64,000 bases of DNA, taken from the NCBI GenBank assembly GCA_021604525.1, contig BQJD01000017.1, positions 11,231-75,230 of the forward strand, given 5' to 3'. A program made the position numbers and the translations under genes. This DNA comes from a marine bacterium B5-7 (GTDB lineage: Bacteria > Pseudomonadota > Gammaproteobacteria > Arenicellales > CAJQKF01). Below, piece by piece: positions 31,513 through 50,107 of this stretch; the stretch's first letter is position 1, and the number at the start of each line of letters is the position of its first letter. A model generated the notes under the pieces. The model saw only the letters and a list, made by a program, of their open reading frames with translations. It made no database searches and was not told the origin of the DNA.

Positions 31513-34500
31513 TCAGGATGGGGTTGCGATTGTATTGAGAGGTGCTACATATTCAATCTCACGCACATACCGGTCCCACATGGTTGAGTAAGCGTCTTCC
31601 AACTCCTTGGCGATACGCCCAGGTTGCATCAACGATGAGTTTTTCATTCGCTGCCGCATGGTGAGTTTCAAATCGATGAGGTGCTCGGGCTGTTGGGCAA
31701 ACTTGATCGCCTTGTCGATATAGTCGGTTGTGTCCCTCGCGATCCAGTCGTTAAGTCCCAGCCGGGTCAGAATACTGGCACCCACTCGCGCGGCATGACG
31801 ATCACCGGCAAGAGCCAGCACGGGTACACCCATCCATAATGCGTCACAGGTGGTTGTCGTACCGTTATAGGGAAACGGATCAAGCGCAATGTCGATCTGA
31901 TTATATAAATTCAAATGCTCGGCGTTGTCGATCGTGTTCATCAGGTGAATTCGTTGTGGTTCGATACCCTGTTTTGAGAATTTATTCTGGTAACGTTCGA
32001 CAATCTCACGATTATTGAGGTTGTGTGCCTTGATGAGTAACGTGGACTCCGGTAACTGACGCAGTATTCCTGACCAACATGCGATGACATCGTCATTGAC
32101 TTTATTGATGTTGTTGCAACAGGCAAACGTGTAGTGGCGATGATTCTGAGTATTGTTGTTCAGCGTGATAGGGACAGCGACAGCATGTCTTGAGTAACCT
32201 AAAAAACCGTTCGGTAAACGAATCAGCTGTTCGCTATGCAGCGAATCCGATACACCCGGTGGATCGGCCTCGGTATCGGTAATTCGATAGTCGATCTCCC
32301 CAAGGCCGGTGGTATTTGCATATCCAAGGTAGGTGCACTGTATCGGCGCCGGCTTGCGAGCGAACAAGGGGAGCCGGCCACCTCCCGTATGACCACTCAA
32401 GTCCACCAGTATATCGATGCCGTCGTGTCGTATCTGCTTTTCGACGGTCGCATCGTCAATATGCTTTATCTCCCGCCAGTAGTCACTGAACAGACGTAAC
32501 TTGGTTGTCATAACGTCACTACCGCCAGTAGCAGAATAGCAGTACACCTCGAAGCGATCACTATTGCGGAACTTCAGGACGTTGTAGAAGAACATGGCGA
32601 CCGAGTGCATCTTGAAGTCCGCCGACACATAACCGATGCGAATTTTCGATTTGTTTCGCCTTGTCAAGTTATGTGAACGGCAAACATCAATCAAGGAAGC
32701 AGATACCGCGTTGCCCCATTGCTGGTGGAGCATGAAGTTTTGTTCCGGACGGAGTCTTTGGTTGTAGTTAGAGAAGAACAGCCGGTTACTCCAGTTCGGA
32801 TTTTTCGCCTCAATCCTTGAAGTGGCATATCGCCACAGGCGATGCGCCGTGTCGAGCTTTCCACGAGACGCACTTATGCTGGCGAGATATGTCCAGTAAA
32901 TTGAGTTTTCAGGATTGATCCGAATTGCTTTTTGAACGGAATCAATCGCTGCGGTCATATCACCGGATTTCTCTCGCAGACGGGCTTCAATGAACAACAA
33001 GTCTTCCGCATTAGCCCCCGTGGTTCTCAACGATTCAAGCAGTCTCTCGGCGCGCTGTAGAAATTTCTTTTCCAGCGCGTGTTCGAACTGTGCCCTGAAC
33101 CACTCCTCGGAGTCGAGGAATTTTATTAAATGTTGAGAGATGGGATCGTCAGGTTTTATCGAAATTTGTTGTTTAAAAGCACTCAATAAATGATCAATGC
33201 CCAAGGGGTTGAGCATCATAAGCTGATGCATTACCTTCCACGTCGATTCGGCATTGGATTGACGGGAATAAAGACCGATCAGGTTCTGAAGCGCCGCTGG
33301 GTATCCCGGCATGTATTTCAGACACTTGACATAGGCATGCACAACAAGCTTCTCGCTTCGTCCGCATTGCTGGTACACCGCGCCAATTTGAAACCAGGTA
33401 AGTGCGTTACCCCGATGGTATGCCAACGACCGTCTGTAAAAATGCAGCGCCTGGTCGAATTGCTGCAAGCTTTGTGCATGTAAGCCAAGGTTAAACATGG
33501 CTTCGCTGGATCCTGGATAAGCTTGTGCGACTTCCAGCGTGAGATCCTTGCAATGGGAATAATTTTGCGTTTTGAGTAGCTGGCCTGCCTGAATCAGCTG
33601 GTTGGCGAGACGTTCGCTTTCATGCACCGGATTCTTGTCATTATCCGACGGTGCAGGTTCATCGAGCGGCGTGCTGCTTACAATCCAGATATTTTGATCT
33701 GTTGCACCCAGTGTGAGCTGATAACGATTGTTACTGCCACATAGCTGGTCGATGTAGACTTTAATTTCGTCTATATAACCTGCATTTTTTTTCTCGGCGA
33801 TGTAGAAGACACAGCCCGGTTGCACAATATCAATCAAGTCGTCGAGAATATCTCGCACGGGACGATCAAAACCGAGAACACCAGACAACACAATAACGTC
33901 TGCTGTGCTTATGACACGCCGGGAAATGTCGGCACGGATATCTTCACACAGCAAAGTGTCGTAGCCACAACCGGCATTGGCGACGCGAATGCTTTCAGTC
34001 GAATGGTCGATACCCGTCAGTGTCAGGGCAGCTTCATGTTTCGCAAGCTCGCGGGCAAGGCGTCCGGTGCCGCAACCAATATCGACGACATGTGTCAGGA
34101 CATTTTCTTTGACACAGGCACGCGTCGCAATATCTTTTGCGATAACGGCCATGGCTTCATTCTCGGCAGCGCTGGCAATGTAGTTGGCAAGTTGTGCGCG
34201 ACGATCGAAAAATGCATGCCAGTCCCATGTTGCCGATCGATTATTCAGATGGTGCTGTATGCTTTTCGAAATCTCGTTATCAACAGAGCTATCGGAACAG
34301 GACAGATCCATGATGACGAGTTCATTGGGGGAGAACAATTGCAGCAGTGCATCGACAACACGTTCAAGGAATGTGTCGATCTCTGCCGCATCCCATAGAC
34401 TCAACAACCGCTTGAATCCACTCGCATCTTTTGCACATATGCTGCAACACGCAAAACGGATTATTTCTTCATCTGTAAGCTGGCCTTGGGTAGCTGCAAC

Positions 34501-34893
34501 GTAGGCGAAATGTATGAGGGCGTCGTCGAATCGATGACATTCCATTAACCGGTTGGCAAAGTGTATCCGCGCGTCTTTATTGGAAAAATCGAGTGCCAGG
34601 CAGTGGGAAAAATCGTTCAGCGCATCCTCGATATTGAGTAACTGCCATTTCAAATGCCCGGATTGCATCCAGACATCCGGATCATCGGGAGTCAAAATCA
34701 TTGCGTAGCGGAGGTGGTCCTGGGCGGCGGGCAGGAAGCCGAGCTTCTCGTCGATGGTCGAGAGGATTATCCAGTTGTCGCTATTGGATGGATCAAGTTC
34801 GCATAGCTCCGACCAGAGTGGGCGGGCAAGATCGAGACGGCCACTTTCAATAGCGGCTATGGCCGATGCGTGTAACGTTGATTGAGAATCCAT
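31513..34893 (-). CDS. multidomain TPR - class I SAM methyltransferase - TPR - GT41 (OGT/SPINDLY-like) glycosyltransferase
   Basis: Methyltransferase motif I VVDIGCGTGRLA (coded near nt 34080). TPR-like helices on both sides of it. C-terminal GT41-type region IRIGYVSADFKMHSV, LSGHTGGGRLPLFARKPAPIQ, FACCNNINK and DPFPYNGTTTTCDALWMGVPV. ATG 34893 preferred over the TTG at 34926. Confidence 0.8.
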   Translation of the reverse strand: MDSQSTLHASAIAAIESGRLDLARPLWSELCELDPSNSDNWIILSTIDEKLGFLPAAQDHLRYAMILTPDDPDVWMQSGHLKWQLLNIEDALNDFSHCLALDFSNKDARIHFANRLMECHRFDDALIHFAYVAATQGQLTDEEIIRFACCSICAKDASGFKRLLSLWDAAEIDTFLERVVDALLQLFSPNELVIMDLSCSDSSVDNEISKSIQHHLNNRSATWDWHAFFDRRAQLANYIASAAENEAMAVIAKDIATRACVKENVLTHVVDIGCGTGRLARELAKHEAALTLTGIDHSTESIRVANAGCGYDTLLCEDIRADISRRVISTADVIVLSGVLGFDRPVRDILDDLIDIVQPGCVFYIAEKKNAGYIDEIKVYIDQLCGSNNRYQLTLGATDQNIWIVSSTPLDEPAPSDNDKNPVHESERLANQLIQAGQLLKTQNYSHCKDLTLEVAQAYPGSSEAMFNLGLHAQSLQQFDQALHFYRRSLAYHRGNALTWFQIGAVYQQCGRSEKLVVHAYVKCLKYMPGYPAALQNLIGLYSRQSNAESTWKVMHQLMMLNPLGIDHLLSAFKQQISIKPDDPISQHLIKFLDSEEWFRAQFEHALEKKFLQRAERLLESLRTTGANAEDLLFIEARLREKSGDMTAAIDSVQKAIRINPENSIYWTYLASISASRGKLDTAHRLWRYATSRIEAKNPNWSNRLFFSNYNQRLRPEQNFMLHQQWGNAVSASLIDVCRSHNLTRRNKSKIRIGYVSADFKMHSVAMFFYNVLKFRNSDRFEVYCYSATGGSDVMTTKLRLFSDYWREIKHIDDATVEKQIRHDGIDILVDLSGHTGGGRLPLFARKPAPIQCTYLGYANTTGLGEIDYRITDTEADPPGVSDSLHSEQLIRLPNGFLGYSRHAVAVPITLNNNTQNHRHYTFACCNNINKVNDDVIACWSGILRQLPESTLLIKAHNLNNREIVERYQNKFSKQGIEPQRIHLMNTIDNAEHLNLYNQIDIALDPFPYNGTTTTCDALWMGVPVLALAGDRHAARVGASILTRLGLNDWIARDTTDYIDKAIKFAQQPEHLIDLKLTMRQRMKNSSLMQPGRIAKELEDAYSTMWDRYVREIEYVAPLNTIATPS

Positions 34894-35225
34894 GCGAAGC
34901 TTTTTTCTGTTTAATTGTAATGGCAATTCGCTGATGAATCATCAAGACTAGTGTATGAATGATTATGTCACCTGCGAAAACATATACGGTTGTATTCCTC
35001 ATCCAGGATAAACAACCGACCATATATGGACTATAGAAACTAGTTTCCAGAATACACCAATCATGCAGTAAGCCTGAATTCCTGAAACGGTAACAATAAA
35101 CGTGAAGAAATTACATTCAGGGTTTACTCGTACCAAATCGCGAATGATATGGCGTTATGTGGTCAGGTACAATAAGTGCTATCAGAGAAATGTACGAACT
35201 ACACAGGTGGGCGAGATGTCGGCTT

Positions 35226-36353
35226 TTAGCTGATTGTGGAATTGACCCGAGGATTTGACTTTGGCGCATCGACCAGCGTACCTTCCATCAGTTTTTTGAA
35301 CGCGTAGTAGGACGGCATTTTGCGCAACGTGCCACCACGATGATCCACCAATCCATAACCGGGATTAATGAGCTGCCACCAGTAAACTCGTTCCACCAGT
35401 TGGCTGCGCCAGGCAATCTTGAAGTAGTGTGTCAGATAATCGGCCTGGGTTGCCTCATCCACCGTCGATCGGGGATGGCCTGAATTCGGTGTGTACGGTT
35501 TAGTGTCAAGCAACGGCCAGTTGGTTTCACTGATCCAAAGACGCCGTCCGCTGACGTTGGAGACCGCGAGCATTGCTGCGATGAGGCGAATCTTGCGTTC
35601 GAGATTGAACACACCGTACTGTCGGCCATCGGGTGAGCCGCGACGATTGATATAAAGCAACGAGGCGCAAATATCGAATTGCTGAGGGTGAAAATTAAAT
35701 AACGTTCGAAGCGTGACCAGCGGCTCGAAATCGATCACTGATGAGCCGGCTACTTCAATAGGATTCGAGGCATTTTTAATTTCGTTGATTGCCCGCATCG
35801 CCCGATCCATCAGGTCAAGCCATTGGCCGCTGTGCCGGCAGCCCCACTTGCTGCGATTGATGGCATTGCCTATCTGGTAGGTCCGAGCCCGAGGCGACAG
35901 GCCGGCGACGATTTGGCTCACCTGCCGCTGCCAGTTGTCCGGGTCACGAATGCTATCGCGGCTTTGCAAAATATTGATCGCAAAGTCGCGATCCGGCAGA
36001 CGATTCATCAGCTCAAGGTAGGGTTCAAGCTGATCTGCTTCCCAACAGGGTACTCGCACCATCAGGTTCCTGACATTGAGGTCGTCGACCATGTCGACGA
36101 TAGCGTCGTTAAAGCGAGTATCGGGTGTAACGCTCAGGCCGACAAAATCATGCGCATCGGCAGGCGCCGATAAGAATGGTTTCATGAACGAATAACGAAG
36201 TGCCACGAATGGACCTAAAGCCAAAACGCTGACCGCTATCTTCATGTACTCGATAATATTGCCAACGGAAGTTCGCGGCTTGTCGGACTCTTGCAGCTTG
36301 TAGGGCTGACTGGAGTACGGGTCCCACCAGTCGGGCAGGAGATCCGGATTCAC
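35226..36353 (-). CDS. hypothetical protein, TIM-barrel glycoside-hydrolase-like
   Basis: One N-terminal hydrophobic segment. Clan GH-A-like strands YQIGNAINRSKWG and RLWISETNWP, and a C-terminal YWWQLINPGYGLVD. Assignment rests on motif resemblance only. Confidence 0.45.
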   Translation of the reverse strand: MNPDLLPDWWDPYSSQPYKLQESDKPRTSVGNIIEYMKIAVSVLALGPFVALRYSFMKPFLSAPADAHDFVGLSVTPDTRFNDAIVDMVDDLNVRNLMVRVPCWEADQLEPYLELMNRLPDRDFAINILQSRDSIRDPDNWQRQVSQIVAGLSPRARTYQIGNAINRSKWGCRHSGQWLDLMDRAMRAINEIKNASNPIEVAGSSVIDFEPLVTLRTLFNFHPQQFDICASLLYINRRGSPDGRQYGVFNLERKIRLIAAMLAVSNVSGRRLWISETNWPLLDTKPYTPNSGHPRSTVDEATQADYLTHYFKIAWRSQLVERVYWWQLINPGYGLVDHRGGTLRKMPSYYAFKKLMEGTLVDAPKSNPRVNSTIS

Positions 36354-38752: not shown

Positions 38753-39409
38753 ATGACTCAAGAGCAACAACCATCAGCCACGAATCGACGCAAACTGATT
38801 AAGGCGCTTACGATTGGCGGCGTTGCTGCTGGTACGGCTAAACTTCCCGAGCAGTGGGCGAAGCCTGTGGTCGAATCTATTGTACTGCCAGCTCACGCCC
38901 AGACTACGCAACCAGAAGCACCCCCGGGTCCAGATCTCGGTGACGGATATTTTCTGGCACAAGGTAGCGGCATAGCTTTGCAGCAACCTGACGATTCGAT
39001 TTTGGACTATTTTGCTCGTCCGGCACATGCGCAAGACGACATTGACGCTGATCAATTCGTGGTAGGTTGTGTGTCGCTGAAAGACGGAAAGTTGTACATC
39101 GACTCACTTTATAACGACATCACTGGTGACGGCGTATTTTGTCTTCTGGACAACCTCATGGAAGTCAGCGGTGTACCACTCGGTGGCAGCCAGTCTCTCA
39201 ATATTGGTTCAGAGTTTGATCTTCCCGCCGAAACCGAAGACTGCGACAACGATTTCTATCCGGCTACCGTGCATTTCGATAGTATTTCCGGGCAGGCGCC
39301 CAATCGCATGGTGACAATACGTCTGGTTACCGCTGCGACCAACGATATCGTTGTCTGTCAGGAAACCGACAAGCCTACCTGTGAGAGCGCGGTTACTTTA
39401 CCGGAGTAA
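38753..39409 (+). CDS. exported hypothetical protein, member 1 of the RR...LPxQWxxPVV...LPAHAQTT presequence family
   Basis: GGGAGA ribosome-binding site 8 nt before ATG 38753. Twin-arginine TNRRKLIKALTIGGVAAG followed by LPEQWAKPVVESIVLPAHAQTT. Acidic mature part with 5 Cys and a second ARPAHAQDD motif. Confidence 0.6.
   Translation: MTQEQQPSATNRRKLIKALTIGGVAAGTAKLPEQWAKPVVESIVLPAHAQTTQPEAPPGPDLGDGYFLAQGSGIALQQPDDSILDYFARPAHAQDDIDADQFVVGCVSLKDGKLYIDSLYNDITGDGVFCLLDNLMEVSGVPLGGSQSLNIGSEFDLPAETEDCDNDFYPATVHFDSISGQAPNRMVTIRLVTAATNDIVVCQETDKPTCESAVTLPE
38786..38908 (+). other. conserved presequence block, copy in member 1
   Basis: Encodes RRKLIKALTIGGVAAGTAKLPEQWAKPVVESIVLPAHAQTT. The LP...AHAQTT part matches members 2 and 3 at 15 of 22 residues. 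Confidence 0.6.
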
Positions 39410-39426: not shown

Positions 39427-40530
39427 TCATCCCGGGTTAATTGGCTGCATCATAAGGTCGAGACGTTCATAACCTGAAGATAGGCCGTTACCCGGGAGAT
39501 TGGTTTTTCCCTCGCCACAAACGAGGTCGATCGTGTCGCGAATCAGCACCTGCTTGATACTTTTTGAAGATAGTGCGGCGATCTCCGGCGTTCGGTTGCA
39601 TTCGATCAACCACGGATTGCCGTGTACGTCGATTTCAATATCGAGGCCGAGTAATTCGAAGCAATTGTTGCGATGCTGTAAATGTGACCCGATATCGTTT
39701 TCCATAGCAGAGGTTATTCTCCCGGCAACGTCTCCCACCATGGTTTTGATGCGTGCCCATAACAGACCGAAGTCGCTATGGTGATACTTGAAGGTTGCCG
39801 CCCAGCGACTTAACGAAACCGAACATTCCGTCGCCGGTTTGTCGGTCAGTGCCGTCTGTATGTGGGTATTGGTGTTGTAAGCCGCCGGGTCGGTCAGGTT
39901 GCGGAGCGCTTGTGGAAACGGCGCACTCGCCAGATCCACATAACCTTCGTTATAAATATAGGCTTCACCGGGTTTAATCGCCGTGATCAGCAGATACAGA
40001 CGCAAGTTGAACTTGCAGCCGTCGTGCAGCATCGGCGTGTGCAAATATTGCTGGACGATAGTTCTGGGCTTTGGTTTTACTTGTCCTGGATCTAAAACAA
40101 CTTCGATACCCTGACCGCATGCGCCTAAAACCGGTTTGATAATCCATGCCATATCCGGATGTTGCGCAGCATAGGACTTGAACGACTCCAGTTCATCCGC
40201 CAACCGCCAGGTCCGCGGATAGTATCGGGGCGCATTCGAATCGGCAGGCTGGTCCAGGGTTTTATCGAGTGCATGTTTACCGATGTAGTCGGATATCCCC
40301 GGAAAATGGCAAATTCGCTGATGCTCTTTGAGGTCGTATAAAACGGCCGGAGGCGGATCTTTCGCCACATACCACAATAAATCCCAATCCGGTTTATAGG
40401 TCCGCTGCCAGCCACGCCGCTCGAACTCCGCTTCGAGCAGGCTCAAGTCAGTTCGGCGAGAAGTGGGAACCAATCCGTATTTCTTCACAACCATTCCAAG
40501 CGCAAAATCCCTCTCCCTATCGTGGCCCAA
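39427..40530 (-). CDS. tubulin-tyrosine ligase (TTL) family ATP-grasp protein
   Basis: TTL-family blocks WIIKPVLGACGQGIEV, QQYLHTPMLHDGCKFNLRLYLLITAIKPGEAYIYNEGYVDLA, and CFELLGLDIEIDVHGNPWLIECNRTPE. TTG start at 40530; an alternative ATG is at 40494. Confidence 0.8.
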   Translation of the reverse strand: MGHDRERDFALGMVVKKYGLVPTSRRTDLSLLEAEFERRGWQRTYKPDWDLLWYVAKDPPPAVLYDLKEHQRICHFPGISDYIGKHALDKTLDQPADSNAPRYYPRTWRLADELESFKSYAAQHPDMAWIIKPVLGACGQGIEVVLDPGQVKPKPRTIVQQYLHTPMLHDGCKFNLRLYLLITAIKPGEAYIYNEGYVDLASAPFPQALRNLTDPAAYNTNTHIQTALTDKPATECSVSLSRWAATFKYHHSDFGLLWARIKTMVGDVAGRITSAMENDIGSHLQHRNNCFELLGLDIEIDVHGNPWLIECNRTPEIAALSSKSIKQVLIRDTIDLVCGEGKTNLPGNGLSSGYERLDLMMQPINPG

Positions 40531-43178: not shown

Positions 43179-43214
43179 CCGCCCTACGAGAACAGTGAGG
43201 CTCTGGTAGGGCGG
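43179..43214. terminator. GC-rich hairpin between convergent genes (possible bidirectional terminator)
   Basis: Stem CCGCCCTAC (43179-43187) / GTAGGGCGG (43206-43214) with an 18-nt loop. On the minus strand a T-run follows within about 10 nt. Confidence 0.4.
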
Positions 43215-43288
43215 GCATAACCGAAAGGTTCCAGCCATCGACTCAGAAGCCATCAGACAAATGAATGGTTTGAGTCGTATCAACGATC

Positions 43289-43867
43289 CTAGCTAAAATC
43301 GGTGATACAGGAATCGGTGAATGACGTTTCCGATATGACAGTTATAGTTGTACTTCCACCAGATATGGTTCCTACACCGGGGAAAGTTGACAGCGCACCC
43401 AGTGTCGACTCAGTCCCTGGATAGGTTGTAAAGAAAATAAGATTTACAATGTAAGAAGTGAAGCTGGTGCTGATTGTTGAAATAATGCTACCGCTAGGTG
43501 CCGTAAGACATTGAGTGAAAGTTGTTGCTGAGAGACCGATATAATTGTAATCGGTGCCGTCTGAAGATAAATCGAGTGCGTGAAGCTGTTCGATACCGGA
43601 TGTACATGATATCTCGCAAGGCGGTTCAGAGGTGCTGGACGTTGTAGTAGTACTAGTTGTTGTTTGGGCGTGAGCCGGCAACAACACATGGTCGACGACC
43701 GGGCGCGACCACTGTTTTGGCAGTTGGGTGGCACCGCTGACACCGACGGCGGAAATGGCTGCGACCAAGGCTCGCCGACGCTCTTTGTTGGTATCCGAAT
43801 CGTTTTGATCCGCAGCTAACGGAGTGGTATTTGAGCCCGATACGCTCGGTCTAATTTTATCAGTCAT
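43289..43867 (-). CDS. exported Ser/Thr/Cys-rich hypothetical protein, member 2 of the presequence family
   Basis: GGGAG ribosome-binding site upstream. RRRALVAAISAVGVSGATQLPKQWSRPVVDHVLLPAHAQTTT, then a poly-Thr/Ser linker and a 4-Cys domain (EPPCEISCTSG...TQCLTAPSG...DSC). Confidence 0.65.
   Translation of the reverse strand: MTDKIRPSVSGSNTTPLAADQNDSDTNKERRRALVAAISAVGVSGATQLPKQWSRPVVDHVLLPAHAQTTTSTTTTSSTSEPPCEISCTSGIEQLHALDLSSDGTDYNYIGLSATTFTQCLTAPSGSIISTISTSFTSYIVNLIFFTTYPGTESTLGALSTFPGVGTISGGSTTITVISETSFTDSCITDFS
43655..43780 (-). other. conserved presequence block, copy in member 2
   Basis: Codons 30-71. The protein sequence is identical to codons 30-71 of member 3. Confidence 0.7.
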
Positions 43868-44293
43868 TGTTCTGCTCCCTCGCCTTCCTTATTATGGCTT
43901 AACAATAAATTATTGTATTTTATGGTTATTTGTCAGGTTCGTTATTCTTTTCCGTAATGCTTGAATTCACGGGTAAATAATTACAGCCGGGTATGCTAAG
44001 AACCCCCTGCATGTGCTCGTAAACACCCTCCATATTACCGAGACTACGACGATAATAGTCAAACTGCACACATTATTCAATTTATATTAAATTTCGGTTG
44101 ATAAATGAAAACATCCCGAATTTATTGAACGACGGGAAGAATGTTTAAAACAAATGCTGTGAGGGGGGTGATGACGGGTGTCTTCAGACATCTTGACTCG
44201 ATCTGTCGAAACTCGTGAGGAGCCCGAATAACAATAAATCGGTTTTGAAGAAGTGGTATTGCTGTATTAACGAAGCAATAAGTGGGTAAGGCT

Positions 44294-44334
44294 TATCCGC
44301 CCCACGCTTTTGTGGCGACCGTAAGGGGCGGATA
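44294..44334 (-). terminator. GC-rich hairpin downstream of member 3
   Basis: Stem TATCCGCCCC (44294-44303) / GGGGCGGATA (44325-44334) with a 21-nt loop. No clear T-run, so the terminator call is tentative. Confidence 0.3.
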
Positions 44335-44377
44335 TGAGGTACTAAATGCCAGATAACGGATTCACGATCCGTGAGGT

Positions 44378-44932
44378 TCAGTTACAGGGGGTATTAAATG
44401 AGGTTGATGCAGAGAGAAAGATCTCGGTTGCAACATTCACTTCGGTACCTAGAGGGTAAGTTGTCAGAGCGCCATAACTCGAGAAAGATCCCGTTTCGGT
44501 TGCCAGTAAGTTGAAATAGCCTGCAAATGCGGTGTCGAAGACACTAATTGTTGTAGATGTCACGTCACCACCAGGTTCCGAAATACAATTCGTGTAAGTC
44601 GTAACGGCGAAACGGGCCAGAAAATGAGTGCTGAGGAAATCATCGTAATAAACCTCAAGATCCTCAATGATGCCGGAGGTGCACGATATCAGGCAGGCCG
44701 GCTCCGAGGTGCTGACCGGCGTGGTTGTCTGAGCGTGTGCCGGCAACAACACATGGTCGACGACCGGACGCGACCACTGTTTCGGCAGTTGGGTGGCACC
44801 ACTGACGCCAACGGCAGAAATGGCAGCTACCAATGCGCGTCGGCGTTGTTTGTTTAGATCTGCCTCACCATGATCTGCAGAATGCTCAGTGGCATTCGAA
44901 TCCGATACATTCGGCCTGGTTTTTTCTTCCAT
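44378..44932 (-). CDS. exported Ser/Thr/Cys-rich hypothetical protein, member 3 of the presequence family
   Basis: Same 42-aa block as member 2. Mature part is homologous but diverged (EPACLISCTSG...TNCISEPGG...YGALTTYP...TPCN). Confidence 0.65.
   Translation of the reverse strand: MEEKTRPNVSDSNATEHSADHGEADLNKQRRRALVAAISAVGVSGATQLPKQWSRPVVDHVLLPAHAQTTTPVSTSEPACLISCTSGIIEDLEVYYDDFLSTHFLARFAVTTYTNCISEPGGDVTSTTISVFDTAFAGYFNLLATETGSFSSYGALTTYPLGTEVNVATEIFLSASTSFNTPCN
44720..44845 (-). other. conserved presequence block, copy in member 3
   Basis: Codons 30-71. Hand alignment against 43655-43780 gives 17 differences, all at third codon positions and all synonymous. Confidence 0.7.
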
Positions 44933-45379
44933 AATTATTCTCTCGATATCTAAAGTTGTAACGAAATTTAATAAGTCCTTGTTAATACCAGCCCGATTCG
45001 CTATTTAATTTGCGAGTTTTCAAAAAATGTGTATGTGACTTCAATTCAGGTGTACATGAGTTGCCCTGATATTTGTGCGAACCTTGCCCTGTTTGTCCGG
45101 ACTGGACTTGACTATATTCCAGGTCACCCGACAATTTGCCCTTTCAGGTAAAGAGTTACCAATAAATCCAGGGGTTTACAGATTCTGGAGTTAGTTAAAA
45201 GCACTATCAGCAAGAGATATCGGGACGCTTGATCGACGATTTCAATCAACCTGTAGGCATCCCTGATATCATTGAGCGACTAGATGTAAGAGTCCGTACA
45301 ACCAGCAAACCCGCCGCTTGATTCTGGTGCTTGCGACTCACATATTCACAGGCCGTTGCACAATGGTTTACAAATCAAT

Positions 45380-46045
45380 ATGACGCACAACCTGTTCACG
45401 CCAAAATTCGAAAACCTCCCCGATGTGATACCGGTCTTCCCACTACCAGGCGCCATCCTGATGCCGGGAACACAGTTGCCGCTGAATATCTTCGAACCAC
45501 GCTACTTACGCATGCTGAATGATGTACTCTCAAACGACCGCATAATCGGGATCGTGCAGCCCGATAGTCGATCTCGCGACGATGAGGTGGTGTGTAATAC
45601 AGGCTGTGCAGGACGGATCACATCATTCAACGAAACTGATGACGGCCGTTTCATCGTGTTGTTGTCGGGGTTGTGCCGATTTGATCTGGTCGCGGAGACA
45701 ACCGATGGCACCGACTATCGAACTTTCCGTGTCGACTGGTCACGCTTTCAATCCGACTACGATCTGGAGCAATCCCTCGATGGATTGTCAACCTCGCGGG
45801 ATGCCTTGCTGAAGTGGGTCAGGGAATTTGGCTCGACTCGCAACGCAGAAGTGGATTTCGACAGTCTCGGCAAGCTCAATGATCTGCAGGTGGTTAATGT
45901 GCTGATCTGTGGTTTGGGATTCGAGCCGCCTTCCGTACAGGGGCTGATTGAATCGGTGTCACTGACCGATCGCGCCGATTTGCTCTCCGGGCTTTTAAGG
46001 ATAGCCTCAATGAATTCCAGCGATCCCGGCCATCACACCCATTAG
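45380..46045 (+). CDS. LON peptidase N-terminal (substrate-binding) domain protein
   Basis: IPVFPLPGAILMPGTQLPLNIFEPRYLRMLNDVL is the Lon-N/PUA-like signature. ATG 45380 preferred over TTG 45356. Confidence 0.8.
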   Translation: MTHNLFTPKFENLPDVIPVFPLPGAILMPGTQLPLNIFEPRYLRMLNDVLSNDRIIGIVQPDSRSRDDEVVCNTGCAGRITSFNETDDGRFIVLLSGLCRFDLVAETTDGTDYRTFRVDWSRFQSDYDLEQSLDGLSTSRDALLKWVREFGSTRNAEVDFDSLGKLNDLQVVNVLICGLGFEPPSVQGLIESVSLTDRADLLSGLLRIASMNSSDPGHHTH

Positions 46046-48174
46046 CGGAATTTTCCCCGATCCGGTTTGAAACCAGCGACTGCGCGTCGCAGCCCGATCA
46101 AACCCATCTCATTGGGTGATCTGCTGTATCGCAGGCAGATATAGGTCTTGCCGATAGTTTCGATGGTCTCGGCATGGTCGGGTAACGCTTCGGCAGCACG
46201 CTTACTTAAGGATAGCGGACCTTCACTTGGCATTACGCGTATGCCCGCGCGTGCCAGCTTCGATTTGAATCTTCGATAGTGCTTAAGCGGTGTTTCAGCT
46301 TGCCGGCTCGTTGCAGAGAGCAGCAGGTAGGTTGCGATCATGAATACTGCGAACGCGGCAGTCAGTGTCATTACCAGCCAGGGCCAGTCGGGAGTCGCCA
46401 CACCCAGGCGCTTCATTAACTGCTGCTGGCGTTGTGGCCCATAGGCCATGACCCAGTTATTCCACTGGTAAACGAATGCATCGGACAGGTGGCGTATGCG
46501 TCTCAGATTATCGCCAAGCCAGCCGCTACGTAGCATATTGCGAATACCACTCGTGCCAAAGCCCGAATTAAAACCGGCCAGCGAATCGCCTCTTCGCAGT
46601 GCATCGACACCGATCTCGACACGTTCCGGTGCTACCGCGGCGGTTGGATCGATGCGCCTCCAGCCACGCCCGTCAACCCAGATCTCGGCCCACGCATGCG
46701 CATTGGATTGACGCACGATTGTGTAGTCGCCGGTAGGGTTGTATTCACCACCCTGATAGCCAACGACCAATCGCGCGGGTATGCCGGCGGCCCGCATCAG
46801 TGTCGCGAAGGCGCTGGCATAGTGCTCGCAGTAGCCGTTCCTGGTATTGAACAGGAACTGGTAAACCGGTTCGCCGTCGAGTAGCGGTGGTTGAAGCGAA
46901 TAACGAAACGGGCTTTGAGTGAACAATTCAAGCGCGCGAGCCGCGATCATTTCAGCGTTGGGGTTGTCGGCGGGATCGCCGGCAAGATCCTGTGCAAGCG
47001 CTATGATTTTCTTGTTGATGCCGGGATAAAGATCGGTGAGATGGTCATCCGGCGGTCCGGTGGCCATATAGCGTGCCGTGACCGAGGCGGCCTTGAAACG
47101 GATGCGTTCACGAATCGGTTGGCGGGTTTCGCCGAGTGCGAGATTCGATAAAGGATTGCCGATGGATACCGAAACCGGTGTTTCAAGAAGAGGTAGCCAG
47201 GTTTTATCGGTCGCCTCCAACGTCATGTCATAGGCCACAAGCTTCGGGTTGGTATCAGCCGGGAAAACTTCGTGGCGACGTTCGGCCCGGCTCCAGGTGC
47301 GACCATCGAACCTATCCAGCACCAATGTCCGCCAATAAAGCTGGTCATGGTGTGGTCGATCCTGATTGAACTCGACACGAAAGGCGACCGCATCGTTCAG
47401 ACTCAACTCACTGATCGAGCCCGGCGCGACTTGCTCGCTAAGGCCGCTTATGGCGCGGGGCTTATCATCAGCCATGCCCCATAAACTGCCTTCTATACGC
47501 GGGAATAATACATAGGCGACGATGGCCAGCGGAATACCGTGCAAAATGATACGCGAGGTTAATAACATCGCCCCTTTGATTGTGAAGCTTCCCGGCGCCA
47601 CCAGCAGGACAAAATTGCTGATGACCAGGGCAAGACAGAAGAATCCAATGGCGGCCGTTGAGGGTGATTGGTCGAACAGGAATGCTGCCAGCACCACAAT
47701 GGCGGTGAGTATGTTCAAGAACATGGCATCGCGAAGCGAATCGGTTTCGATCACCTTGAGCGCAGTAAAGGCAATTAACATGGCACTGCCGGCGGTGCGC
47801 CCGAATATAGTTCGATACTCCGTTAATAGCAGGACGAGCATGGCGAGCGTCAGAATCCAGCGCAAAAGCTTTCCTGGTACCAGCAATCCTCGCGCAAGGG
47901 TAATCAGGCGTACGGCAACAAGGGTCATGACGACTACACCAAGCCATAGCGGTTGGTACATGACATGCAGACCGAGTGCCAGTGGTACGGTCATAACCGT
48001 TGTGGCCAGTGCAGCACGTGTTGGCGCTTCAAGCGGTGCGGATGGCGGTTGCGGAAATTGCCACCTGCGAGGCTTTACGGGACGAAATTCCGACTCAACA
48101 CGATCATGTGTTTTATGTCCACCTGGCGTGCTCACGGGTTGTCGTCTTGTGTAATATTCGCCGGATCGGGACAA
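46042..48174 (-). CDS. transglutaminase-like membrane protein (TgpA / DUF3488 family)
   Basis: N-terminal polytopic region and transglutaminase core GYCEHYASAFATLMRAAGIPARLVVGY...NAHAWAEIWVDGRGWRRIDPT. The true start may lie downstream, because the ORF overlaps the DUF58 gene by 43 nt. Confidence 0.85.
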   Translation of the reverse strand: MSRSGEYYTRRQPVSTPGGHKTHDRVESEFRPVKPRRWQFPQPPSAPLEAPTRAALATTVMTVPLALGLHVMYQPLWLGVVVMTLVAVRLITLARGLLVPGKLLRWILTLAMLVLLLTEYRTIFGRTAGSAMLIAFTALKVIETDSLRDAMFLNILTAIVVLAAFLFDQSPSTAAIGFFCLALVISNFVLLVAPGSFTIKGAMLLTSRIILHGIPLAIVAYVLFPRIEGSLWGMADDKPRAISGLSEQVAPGSISELSLNDAVAFRVEFNQDRPHHDQLYWRTLVLDRFDGRTWSRAERRHEVFPADTNPKLVAYDMTLEATDKTWLPLLETPVSVSIGNPLSNLALGETRQPIRERIRFKAASVTARYMATGPPDDHLTDLYPGINKKIIALAQDLAGDPADNPNAEMIAARALELFTQSPFRYSLQPPLLDGEPVYQFLFNTRNGYCEHYASAFATLMRAAGIPARLVVGYQGGEYNPTGDYTIVRQSNAHAWAEIWVDGRGWRRIDPTAAVAPERVEIGVDALRRGDSLAGFNSGFGTSGIRNMLRSGWLGDNLRRIRHLSDAFVYQWNNWVMAYGPQRQQQLMKRLGVATPDWPWLVMTLTAAFAVFMIATYLLLSATSRQAETPLKHYRRFKSKLARAGIRVMPSEGPLSLSKRAAEALPDHAETIETIGKTYICLRYSRSPNEMGLIGLRRAVAGFKPDRGKFR

Positions 48175-49100
48175 AGTGCCAATGCCTTAAGACAGCGCGC
48201 CCGGTGTCGCCCGCCCTGGTCGGCAGCAATTGATAAGCCTGGCAGTCTCAGCGCATAACTTGTGCCGGCGCTGTCGGCATCGAGTATCCATCGGCACAAT
48301 TCGGACAGTCGTGACTCGTGGTCGGTGTTGCGGGTGTCGGCGTAGTCAAGGCATATCCCGGCACTGCCTGTGCCCTCGAACTGTTTGCTTACGAGACCGC
48401 TGCCGCGTGCGCTGTTGCGCCAGTGAATTCGGCTCGGCGGGTCCTCTTTGCGGTGACCCCTCAGGCCACGAAAATCGCCATCATCTGCATGGCTACCGTT
48501 ACCGGCCCCGTGTGCCTGGCTGTCAAATGAGATGGGTGAAGACCACACAGCAGCAGGTCGTGGATAAACAAGTTGGCTGACTTCATTGTCTGGCCCCTGA
48601 ACCAAACGCTTGCTCCAGGCACACAACAAGCCCACAGGAAAGATACTGACAAAATATATCTCGGGGAGCGGCTGCCAACCACGCGATCCGGTTTTAAAAT
48701 TCAGCTCAATACGGGTGTGACCATCTGCTGGAAGATCAAAACGCGATTGCGAATCGCCGCCGCGAAGCCACAGCGCGTATCGCGACCTGTGGCGGGTTTC
48801 ATGGACGCGAACGGAACCTTGGGCCATATCACCTGAGAATACCGGTTTGCCGGGATGTATCGATACCGATAATCCAACCAGGTTGCGCTGGGTGTAGTGC
48901 ATGGCGACGATGCCGATAGCCACCAGCATGAAGGTGAACAAGTGACCGAGACCATTGTTGTAGTTGACCGACACCAGCAGCATCATCAGGATCGCACCAG
49001 CATAAAGCATGCCGAAACGGGTCGGCAGGATATACACCTTGCGGGAGTCGGTACCAAGCGCAGGATTGCCGATATCGTCGAGGCTGTCTGCAGTTGTCAT
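48132..49100 (-). CDS. DUF58 domain-containing protein
   Basis: DUF58 signature DFRGLRGHRKEDPPSRIHWRNSARGSGLVSKQFE and two N-terminal TM helices. Sits between the MoxR and TgpA genes. Confidence 0.75.
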   Translation of the reverse strand: MTTADSLDDIGNPALGTDSRKVYILPTRFGMLYAGAILMMLLVSVNYNNGLGHLFTFMLVAIGIVAMHYTQRNLVGLSVSIHPGKPVFSGDMAQGSVRVHETRHRSRYALWLRGGDSQSRFDLPADGHTRIELNFKTGSRGWQPLPEIYFVSIFPVGLLCAWSKRLVQGPDNEVSQLVYPRPAAVWSSPISFDSQAHGAGNGSHADDGDFRGLRGHRKEDPPSRIHWRNSARGSGLVSKQFEGTGSAGICLDYADTRNTDHESRLSELCRWILDADSAGTSYALRLPGLSIAADQGGRHRARCLKALALCPDPANITQDDNP

Positions 49101-49150
49101 TTACCCAGGTCTCATGGCTGGGCGGTCGATTGACATGGCTTCAGACGGCC

Positions 49151-50107
49151 TCAATCAACGGCTACGGATTCGATCAATCGCCGGGTCAGTGCATCACGCT
49201 CAGCAGATGCCAGACCCTGAGCCAGGCGGTGTCCGATAATGGCCGGTGCGACGGCCTGAACATCCTCGGGTAACACCGCATCGCGATTATCCAGCAGTGT
49301 AAAAGCGCGCGCCGCACGCAGCAATGCAAGACCGGCGCGGGGTGACAGGCCGTTATCGATCCATGTCAGATTACGACTGGCTTCAACCAGATCGAGGACG
49401 TAACCAGTCAAAGCGTCGCTGGCGAATACGCCCTCAGCCTGACGTTGCAGTTCGATCACCTCATTGGCATCCAGAACGGCTTCAAGTTCGCGTAGCAGCG
49501 TGGTGCGATCGTCGCCCTTCAACAAGGCCTGTTCGAAGACACGCGATGGAAAGCCGATGGATAGTGTCATCATGAAACGATCGAGCTGACTTTCCGGAAG
49601 CGGGAATGTACCCGATTGCTCGTGGGGATTTTGCGTGGCGATAACAAAGAACGGCGTCGGCAGATCGTAGCTGTGACCATCGACCGAGACCTGATGCTCT
49701 TCCATCGCCTCAAGCAGGGCGCTCTGGGCACGCGGGCTGGCGCGGTTGATCTCGTCGGCCAGCACCACTTCCTTGAACAGCGGCCCTTGATGAAACTTGA
49801 ACCCTGCCCGTTCGGAATCATAGACCGATACGCCGATGACATCCGCCGGGAGCATATCGCTGGTGAACTGGATACGGTTGAAGGCAAGGCCCAGCACTCT
49901 CGCCAAGGAGTGTGCCAGGGTCGTCTTGCCGACTCCGGGATGGTCTTCAATCAACAGATGACCGCGGGCGAGGATGCAGGTCAGGCACAATCTCACCACT
50001 TCCTGCTTGCCGAGGATAAGTTCATTTATCAGAGATTCGGCGTCCGCAAGACGACTCAATGCAGATCGCTGTCGATCCGCAAGCACGTTGACCATGTCAC
50101 TCTCCAT
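49151..50107 (-). CDS. MoxR-family AAA+ ATPase
   Basis: Walker A EDHPGVGKT, Walker B VVLADEINRA and ATQNPHEQSGTFPLPESQLDRF. Confidence 0.9.
   Translation of the reverse strand: MESDMVNVLADRQRSALSRLADAESLINELILGKQEVVRLCLTCILARGHLLIEDHPGVGKTTLAHSLARVLGLAFNRIQFTSDMLPADVIGVSVYDSERAGFKFHQGPLFKEVVLADEINRASPRAQSALLEAMEEHQVSVDGHSYDLPTPFFVIATQNPHEQSGTFPLPESQLDRFMMTLSIGFPSRVFEQALLKGDDRTTLLRELEAVLDANEVIELQRQAEGVFASDALTGYVLDLVEASRNLTWIDNGLSPRAGLALLRAARAFTLLDNRDAVLPEDVQAVAPAIIGHRLAQGLASAERDALTRRLIESVAVD

Follow-up and report, generated by a model that had tools for sequence, protein, structure and literature searches.

A conserved twin-arginine-like leader on a class of variable Ser/Thr-rich proteins genetically coupled to a SPINDLY-like glycosyltransferase/methyltransferase

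Two tandem genes encode the same leader in diverged DNA

In a 64-kb window from marine bacterium B5-7 (the window being the whole analysed stretch of 64,000 nucleotides, contig BQJD01000017.1, positions 11,231 to 75,230), two tandem genes, M2 and M3, encode small Ser/Thr-rich preproteins that share an identical leader block. Both were defined as open reading frames (ORFs) with their translations, and a third gene of the window, M1, carries a related leader:

M2, 43289..43867, minus strand: 192-aa preprotein, equal to P0002 of the public protein collection; polar n-region aa 1-29, leader block aa 30-71, cargo aa 68-192 with Cys 84, 88, 120 and 187
M2 leader block, 43655..43780, minus strand: codons 30-71, matching the 44-position leader profile described below end to end at 93 bits
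M2 RRR and hydrophobic stretch, 43721-43780, minus strand: ALVAAISAVGVSGATQL
M2 spacer, 43667-43720, minus strand: PKQWSRPVVDHVLLPAHA, with predicted cleavage between AHA and Q after nt 43667, then QTTT
M3, 44378..44932, minus strand: 184-aa paralogue of the same architecture, with Cys 80, 84, 116 and 183
M3 leader block, 44720..44845, minus strand: codons 30-71, residues 28-71 of P0001 matching the profile at 93.7 bits; predicted cleavage between AHA and Q after nt 44732
M1, 38753..39409, plus strand: 218 aa, third leader gene, found by tblastn of M2 and M3 against the window and by translation

M3 is identical to P0001, recorded as 'hypothetical protein DHS20C01_21750 [marine bacterium B5-7]', and the whole M2 and M3 proteins are 52% identical. 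Codons 30-71 of both genes encode the same 42-aa peptide, RRRALVAAISAVGVSGATQLPKQWSRPVVDHVLLPAHAQTTT, although 17 of the 126 nucleotides differ, every one of them at codon position 3 and synonymous. Recomputation confirmed the coordinates, sequences and counts of the first-pass annotation, which had described this block from the DNA letters alone.

By Nei-Gojobori counting, the 42 codons of the block contain 35.2 synonymous sites with 17 differences (dS=0.78) and 90.8 non-synonymous sites with none (dN 0), and no ordinary dN/dS emerged there. The 29 codons of the n-region gave dN 0.39 and dS 1.25, with 14/29 residues identical, in line with the earlier description of this part as about half identical. 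The 112 aligned codons of the mature part, 39 of them coding for identical residues, gave dN 0.63 and dS 1.26. Omega (dN/dS) thus has a 95% upper bound of 0.043 in the block, against ~0.5 in the mature domains, where dS is near saturation. If 17 substitutions had fallen on the block at random, the probability that all would be silent is 4e-10, or 2e-9 at kappa=3. These values bear out the proposal that the block is under extreme purifying selection while its flanks are freer. The further suggestion of diversifying selection on the cargo found no support, as an omega of ~0.5 with dS near saturation resembles relaxed constraint and not omega >1.

An assembly duplication, or gene conversion confined to the leader, would also produce two identical peptides, and the arrangement favors conversion, with tandem genes in the same orientation 1,065 bp apart. 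We rejected both explanations and see practically no chance that either is correct. The block dS of 0.78 rules out recent conversion as the cause of the identity, as had been argued from the 17 silent differences. Identical residues are written with different codons at 17/42 positions (40%) in the block and 19/39 (49%) in the mature part, showing that the synonymous divergence of the block is as old as that of the rest of the gene. The top DNA repeat between the two copies is 222 nt long at 77% identity, so the pair is no assembly duplication, and public contigs hold a separate record for each of the two proteins. The two genes stem from an old tandem duplication.

How unusual the absence of replacements is can be gauged from paralogue pairs in other genomes, in which cargo dN was 0.5-1.0 and leader dN 0-0.3. 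Close pairs with a leader dS of 0.7-1.2 (pair 1/2 of locus L002, pairs 0/2 and 2/3 of locus L001) had a leader dN of 0.04-0.05, or about 4 replacements, and more distant pairs had a leader dN of 0.13-0.28, or 10-20 replacements. At an omega of 0.04-0.065, 2.8-4.6 replacements would be expected in the M2/M3 block and 0 were observed (P ~0.01-0.06). The zero count is the low tail of a family-wide constraint and not a separate phenomenon. The label of an invariant leader accordingly holds for the M2/M3 pair and does not extend to paralogues in other genomes, which differ at 4-20 leader positions, or to M1, whose leader matches that of M2 and M3 at only 22/41 positions. Leader identity is therefore not needed for function in this cell.

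The mature cargos of M2 and M3 are 117-125 aa long, and Ser and Thr make up 42% of mature M2 and 30% of mature M3, compared with 12.3% in ten large ORFs of the window. Neither mature protein contains an N-x-S/T sequon. They belong to a cargo class of ~90-125 aa with 26-42% Ser+Thr and four conserved Cys, two of them in a C-x3-C near the start, one in mid-domain that is usually followed by x-x-P-x-G-G, and the last near the C-terminus. The first-pass annotation had called for a structure prediction of this 4-Cys domain. An AlphaFold2 model of M2 from a 25-sequence alignment (mean pLDDT 61.5) shows a helix over the hydrophobic stretch of the leader (residues 23-44) and four long beta-strands in the cargo; a Foldseek search of the model against the PDB returned no fold match (best E 0.17).

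The leader is a portable module on thousands of unrelated proteins

A word-indexed search of 5.8 billion proteins recovered six relatives only. When a profile of the leader alone was instead searched exhaustively against 1.84 billion cluster representatives (50% identity clusters), at least 3,554 representatives matched at E<=1e-3 and 384 at E<=1e-10, and the block shared by M2 and M3 corresponds to this family-wide module. The match lies nearly always near the N-terminus of proteins that are mostly 60-350 aa long, and the cargos behind it are unrelated to one another. The sources are mostly uncultured Gammaproteobacteria of marine and sediment origin, Arenicellales and metagenome-assembled genomes labelled 'Pseudomonadota'. 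A separate genome scan with the leader, using a narrow pattern, gave 10 loci.

An alignment of 150 members yielded the consensus RRxLLKxLxxGG....A..LPxxWxRPVVDSVxLPAHAQTS. Within LPxxW...LPAHA, the residues P, W, P, H and A show no variation, and conservation reaches 90% or more for RR, L, P, V, V, L and A; the spacer follows the pattern LPxxW-x-[RK]-P-V-V-[DE]-x-V-x-L-P-A-H-A. No Pfam or NCBIfam model contains the spacer LPxxWxxPVVxxVxLPAHA, and scans of M2, M3 and the 150 members with both collections found no family covering spacer or cargo. The spacer strings had no relevant occurrence in PMC and bioRxiv full text. The leader family is therefore a blind spot in the annotation of secretion signals in uncultured marine Gammaproteobacteria. 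Among the 150 proteins, Peptidase_S74, the intramolecular chaperone domain of endosialidase, is present in four (best E 4e-9) and a Gly_rich_2 domain in one, indicating that the leader also serves self-processing, fibre-like proteins.

The first half of the leader looks like a twin-arginine translocation (Tat) signal, with its paired arginines and Gly/Ala/Ser-rich hydrophobic helix. M2 reads ERRRALV and M3 QRRRALV, and the RR of the family stands in the consensus RRxLLK; RRRALV lacks the F/L-L-K part of an S/T-R-R-x-F-L-K-like motif. At E<=0.1 the TIGR01409 TAT_signal profile matched 73/150 members and TIGR02811 matched 51/150, and M1 passes the curated TIGR01409 cut-off (18.9 vs 16.7 bits). 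For M2 and M3 the sole Pfam hint was UCR_Fe-S_N, a Rieske-type Tat signal, at E 0.093. At the distal end, the His at -2 of the A-x-A site is invariant in the 150 members, and an A-x-A that follows Pro and precedes Q-T-[ST] is nearly universal. No tat genes were recognized among the window ORFs put through general family scans. Tat dependence, the cleavage site and the final location of M2 and M3 are predictions from sequence.

The cargo class is coupled to a SPINDLY-like glycosyltransferase/methyltransferase

The window also encodes a candidate modifying enzyme for M2 and M3, whose family recurs beside genes of the same cargo class in other genomes:

Candidate modifying enzyme, 31513..34926, minus strand: probable start at ATG 34893, giving 1126 aa

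In locus L002, seven cargo-class genes flank a 1,211-aa ORF that shares 41% identity with the window ORF over 1,143 residues. A cargo-class gene lies 100-400 bp upstream of an enzyme orthologue on the same strand in L012, L013, L014, L018, L021/L022 and L023, which with L002 makes seven independent contigs on which class and enzyme are adjacent. L014 was reached from the enzyme side and not through the leader, as the sole locus of a metagenome scan with the enzyme. The orthologues are 34-42% identical, at full length where the contig spans the gene (44% over 160 aa on the truncated L022), and at identities this low the linkage between class gene and enzyme has outlived long divergence. We conclude that the cargo class is genetically coupled to this SPINDLY-like glycosyltransferase/methyltransferase. 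The earlier view of M2 and M3 as clients of a dedicated system for processing or export is upheld in sharper form by the family-wide profile and this synteny, while processing and export route themselves stay at the level of prediction; the twin-arginine character of the leader and the enzyme gene had both been missed. The presence of a glycosyltransferase also agrees with the earlier advice to check the Thr/Ser tract for glycosylation.

The enzyme consists of N-terminal tetratricopeptide repeats (TPRs), a class-I S-adenosylmethionine (SAM) methyltransferase at ~aa 270-380, further TPRs at ~aa 440-700 and a SPINDLY-type glycosyltransferase family 41 (GT41) domain at ~aa 750-1120. Pfam matches were Glyco_transf_41 (PF13844, 6.6e-53), several TPR families and Methyltransf_12/25/23. 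Residues 654-1122 align with Arabidopsis SPINDLY (SPY) in the PDB at E 7e-90, end to end with SPY residues 376-846, and the next PDB matches to the GT41 part are TtOGT, human OGT and XcOGT. Motif I of the methyltransferase, D-x-G-C-G-T-G, is invariant in four orthologues. The N-terminal TPRs resemble SycD/LcrH peptide-binding chaperones, below cut-off. The enzyme is presumably cytoplasmic, because it has no signal peptide and its N-terminus is not hydrophobic. No NCBIfam equivalog was reached (NF049992 scores 52.9 against a cut-off of 1000), and a protein search with the N-terminal half, dominated by generic TPR and methyltransferase words, gave one irrelevant match. Literature searches for GT41 with twin-arginine, and for ScmC/PqqD, found nothing relevant.

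SPINDLY is a protein O-fucosyltransferase, and its structure paper names D491, H495, S496, K665, Y744 and T748, arguing that the position of Y744 sets pocket size and donor choice (PMC9715652). All six residues are kept in the window enzyme, in the segments DFKMHSV, NNINKVN and FPYNGTTTT. By analogy, a Tyr at the Y744 position suggests a small donor sugar such as a deoxyhexose, with GlcNAc disfavored. The enzyme is thus a putative SPINDLY/OGT-type O-glycosyltransferase with an intact active site, for which transfer to Ser/Thr is predicted. A Ser/Thr content of 30-42% without N-x-S/T sequons likewise favors O- over N-linkage for the cargos, and HMW1C-type N-glycosylation of M2 and M3 was rejected on the lack of sequons.

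Co-oriented with the enzyme gene and 300 bp upstream of it is a 375-aa ORF (35226-36353, minus strand). This ORF had no Pfam, NCBIfam or PDB sequence match and was absent from the other enzyme loci checked before L014; by eye, its LWISETNWP resembles the catalytic-Glu motif of TIM-barrel glycoside hydrolases.

M1 and other leader loci

M1 carries the leader NRRKLIKALTIGGVAAGTAKLPEQWAKPVVESIVLPAHAQTT in front of a cargo unrelated to those of M2 and M3, with an AGGGAGA 8 nt upstream of its ATG at 38753. A second copy of the end of the leader, ILDYFARPAHAQ, follows 44 aa past the first AHA. The corresponding motif, phi-L-D-x-phi-phi-x-P-A-x-A, occurs in 32/136 leader-family cargos, M1 included, where shuffling expects 1.2, and its median position is 44 aa after the first AHA. 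The segment between the first AHA and the second motif is often Gly/Pro-rich, which suggests a pro-segment that would be removed by a second cleavage. The recurrence of the motif also suggests a portable recognition or cleavage element, more than the tail of a signal peptide. M1 ends in ...TLPE and is convergent with a tubulin-tyrosine-ligase (TTL)-family ATP-grasp gene (39427-40530, minus strand; PF03133, 7.5e-46), the two stop codons being 18 bp apart. A link between M1 and this ligase was considered and is unsupported, as none of the 13 loci L001-L013 contains a TTL homologue.

Leader genes also occur in other surroundings. On an Arenicellales chromosome (OZ244198; L001, which is the same as L003, 7357-18967) and on a related contig (L020, 7360-18656), three to five leader genes of another cargo class are flanked by genes for NTP_transf_5, a LuxR-like regulator, a GMC oxidoreductase with a gluconate-2-dehydrogenase subunit-3-like protein, an ScmC-GT2 fusion, PqqD and a sulfotransferase. 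L019 (10001-12964), from a third genome, again has a leader gene abutting a GMC oxidoreductase pair. L016 (2102-7914; also L017) holds four leader genes of at least three cargo classes on one 10.5-kb contig beside HigB/helix-turn-helix toxin-antitoxin-like genes; no GT41 enzyme is present on that contig.

A model for M2 and M3 and its alternatives

The reading that we prefer, and to which we assign an even chance of being right, is that M2 and M3 are clients of the GT41-methyltransferase, glycosylated in the cytoplasm and then exported by Tat. Each preprotein would consist of three modules: a freely evolving polar n-region, a leader of ~45 aa and a fast-diverging, beta-rich cargo. The cytoplasmic enzyme would O-glycosylate, and possibly methylate, Ser/Thr residues of the cargo while its TPR arrays bind the peptide; Tat, which accepts folded or bulky substrates, would export the modified protein; and the leader would be cut between AHA and Q, with the Cys pairs oxidizing outside the cytoplasm. 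The leader would be frozen in protein sequence because several partners must be satisfied at once, namely the translocase, a processing protease and possibly the TPRs of the enzyme or a proofreading chaperone, leaving the cargo free to diverge. What the sequences show directly is the silent divergence of the block, the wide leader family, its likeness to Tat profiles, the synteny and the intact GT41 active site; the modification, its donor sugar and the other biochemical steps are inferred.

Several observations count against this model. The same leader stands on thousands of cargos that have no GT41 neighbor, and so is not specific to the enzyme. M2 and M3 matched nothing in NCBIfam at E<=1 and reached no Tat profile. 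The predicted cleavage site sits 18 residues past the hydrophobic stretch (L49 to A67), well beyond the short c-region, usually 3-7 residues, of a signal peptidase I substrate. Four Cys in the cargo suggest disulfides formed after export, which would be awkward for export of a pre-folded domain, and the structural model of M2 is weak and without a fold match. Within the window, 8.4 kb with unrelated genes separate the enzyme gene from M2 and 3.7 kb separate it from M1, and no enzyme orthologue was found within the available flanks of L015, L016/L017 or L024.

Under another reading, maturation would be leader-guided, as in ribosomally synthesized and post-translationally modified peptides (RiPPs). 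The spacer would then mainly dock class-specific cytoplasmic enzymes and a dedicated protease, the TPRs of the GT41-methyltransferase playing this part for M2 and M3 and a PqqD-type element with GT2, sulfotransferase and nucleotidyltransferase for other classes, while the RR/hydrophobic part would serve only for export. One leader family indeed accompanies many cargo classes in multi-copy arrays beside different modifying enzymes: four or five leader genes in L001 and L020 are surrounded by PqqD, ScmC+GT2, Sulfotransfer_2 and NTP_transf_5, and a PqqD-like ORF adjoins a leader gene in L011. The internal motif of 32/136 cargos cannot be a membrane-proximal signal-peptidase site and implies some other recognition, the -2 His is invariant although signal peptidase I needs none, and the chaperone-like N-terminal TPRs of the enzyme fit a docking role. 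Yet cargos of 100-125 aa far exceed typical RiPP cores, and Sec or Tat signals do not normally serve as RiPP leaders. The leaders of L002 (DS, DA and DV variants) differ from those of the window (DH) with the same enzyme family alongside, and the PqqD association was encountered only in Arenicellales loci, two of them syntenic, where PqqD neighbors other cargo classes. We regard this explanation as unlikely, though it has some evidence in its favor.

We think it quite improbable that M2 and M3 are ordinary proteins, secreted or periplasmic, whose long Tat or Sec signal is specific to their lineage. The glycosyltransferase neighborhood would then reflect a shared envelope or surface function, or co-regulation, and the two leaders would be identical as an extreme outcome of normal purifying selection acting on a widely used signal. 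The leader omega of close paralogue pairs elsewhere is already about 0.03-0.07, at which zero replacements have the P of ~0.01-0.06 given above; the window arrangement is not operonic, with 8.4 kb and housekeeping genes between; and three other contexts lack the enzyme in the available flank. But without functional coupling the conserved order of class gene and enzyme in seven contigs at 34-42% identity would be difficult to account for, a Ser/Thr O-glycosyltransferase beside proteins of 30-42% Ser/Thr is a specific match, and the 20-aa spacer is near-invariant over thousands of clusters, whereas signal peptides are normally among the least conserved segments. Still less do we expect the RR/hydrophobic helix to be an uncleaved signal anchor that tethers the proteins to the inner membrane, with the Pro-rich spacer serving as an interaction motif or as a stalk in the periplasm. 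Rieske proteins are among the Tat substrates that do retain the signal as an anchor, the only Pfam hint for M2 points to that family, and an AHA 18 residues past the hydrophobic stretch is atypical for signal peptidase I. The nearly universal P-A-x-A followed by Q-T-[ST] is nevertheless what would be expected of a processing site, the motif recurs inside cargos, and the hydrophobic stretch is short, Gly/Ala/Ser-rich and weak as a stable anchor.

Modification in the cytoplasm followed by Tat export might also be the general logic of the leader, and not of M2 and M3 only. The leader would then be a modular, hitherto unrecognized address tag, composed of a Tat signal and a portable phi-phi-D-x-phi-phi-x-P-A-H-A and served by class-specific tailoring enzymes and a dedicated protease. 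We offer this as speculation and think it unlikely to be right. If it were true, the tag would apply RiPP logic to whole domains, would route hundreds to thousands of hypervariable small proteins, and would provide the first defined client set of a bacterial SPINDLY-type enzyme. To our knowledge, bacterial SPINDLY/OGT-like GT41 enzymes are widespread and their physiological substrates largely unknown, and the operon-level pairing with a Ser/Thr-rich family of predicted exported clients would make this question directly testable. If glycosylation does precede export, it would represent a new reason for using Tat, and the hypervariable multi-copy cargos would be a candidate repertoire for surface, adhesion or antagonism functions.

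Transcription units and surroundings of M2 and M3

M2 and M3 are preceded by intergenic gaps of 510 and 423 bp, and each is probably its own transcription unit. No conserved promoter or upstream element is shared between them; the repeat ends ~10 nt upstream of the start codons, and promoter-like matches were near background. By reading, M2 has a plausible ribosome-binding site of the GGAG type. Downstream of each gene lies a GC-rich hairpin:

GC-rich hairpin, 43179..43214, minus strand: 75 nt 3' of the M2 stop, then a CUUUUUA run on the M2 strand; -27 kcal/mol, z -4.9
GC-rich hairpin, 44297..44331, minus strand: 47 nt 3' of the M3 stop, without a U-run; -21.1 kcal/mol, z -2.4

A pattern search found these two as the only CCGCCC...GGGCGG hairpins in the window (0.21 expected), and they seem to have been duplicated together with the genes. 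The one behind M2 is probably a terminator shared with a convergent FMN-reductase-like gene, and may act in both directions.

G+C is 0.44-0.49 in the M2-M3 segment of the window (43200-45400) compared with 0.51-0.58 in the flanks, largely because of the two AT-rich gaps. On the minus strand at 46042-50107 lie genes for a MoxR-type AAA ATPase (49151-50107), a 322-aa ORF without family match (48132-49100) and a TgpA-like transglutaminase with DUF4129 (46042-48174), a known type of conserved gene trio that is unrelated to the leader. Rfam and tRNA scans of the window returned nothing.

Comparison with known systems

Two known kinds of system underlie what we propose, Tat signals and the cytoplasmic glycosylation of exported proteins. 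With Tat signals (TIGR01409/PF10518) the leader shares RR, a Gly/Ala-rich stretch of weak hydrophobicity with basic residues behind it, and the A-x-A at the end. Like the long Tat leaders that dedicated proofreading chaperones bind in the TorA-TorD, DmsA-DmsD and NapA-NapD pairs, it would be conserved for a cytoplasmic partner that acts before export. It differs in adding a near-invariant spacer of 18-20 aa before the A-x-A and, in M2 and M3, in reading RRRALV and not S/T-RRxFLK, and the cargo is small, Cys-containing and hypervariable, not a cofactor-containing redox enzyme.

The window enzyme resembles SPINDLY and OGT proteins (SPY, 7y4i and 8dtf; Thermobaculum TtOGT, 5djs; Xanthomonas XcOGT, 2jlb) in its TPR array and GT41 domain, and Ser/Thr-rich acceptors are a further likeness. 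In contrast to these, it carries a fused SAM-methyltransferase and one more block of TPRs at its N-terminus. Its family stands in operon with predicted exported clients, whereas SPY and OGT act on many proteins of the nucleus and cytoplasm. HMW1/HMW1C of Haemophilus and its relatives offers a related arrangement, a cytoplasmic GT41-family N-glycosyltransferase (NGT) beside an exported client on which it acts before export, and HMW1C-like structures match the window enzyme at ~1e-9 to 1e-10. NGTs, however, use the N-x-S/T sequons that mature M2 and M3 lack, and HMW1 is a large Sec-exported two-partner-secretion adhesin.

Serine-rich repeat (SRR) glycoproteins of Gram-positive bacteria, which are glycosylated by GtfA/GtfB and exported by accessory Sec, are similar in having a long conserved signal, a Ser/Thr cargo glycosylated in the cytoplasm and special export. 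They differ in their KxYKxGKxW signal, GT4/GT8 enzymes, SecA2/SecY2 and very large repetitive cargos. M2 and M3 contain no KxYKxGKxW motif or SRR repeats, genes for GtfA/B and SecA2/Y2 were not among the scanned neighbors, and TIGR04224 matched 2/150 leader members (E 0.046). No LanM, SunS or radical SAM enzyme is present, and no RiPP model scored above cut-off. The RiPP families of the prochlorosins, the Nif11/NHLP leaders and the glycocins such as sublancin nonetheless provide the likeness of paralogous precursors with a near-identical leader, divergent cargo and one enzyme, and glycocins combine glycosylation with two disulfides. Where RiPPs join cores of 20-40 aa to a double-glycine leader and a C39 ABC exporter, the M2/M3 class joins cargos of 100-125 aa to a Tat-like leader that ends in A-x-A.

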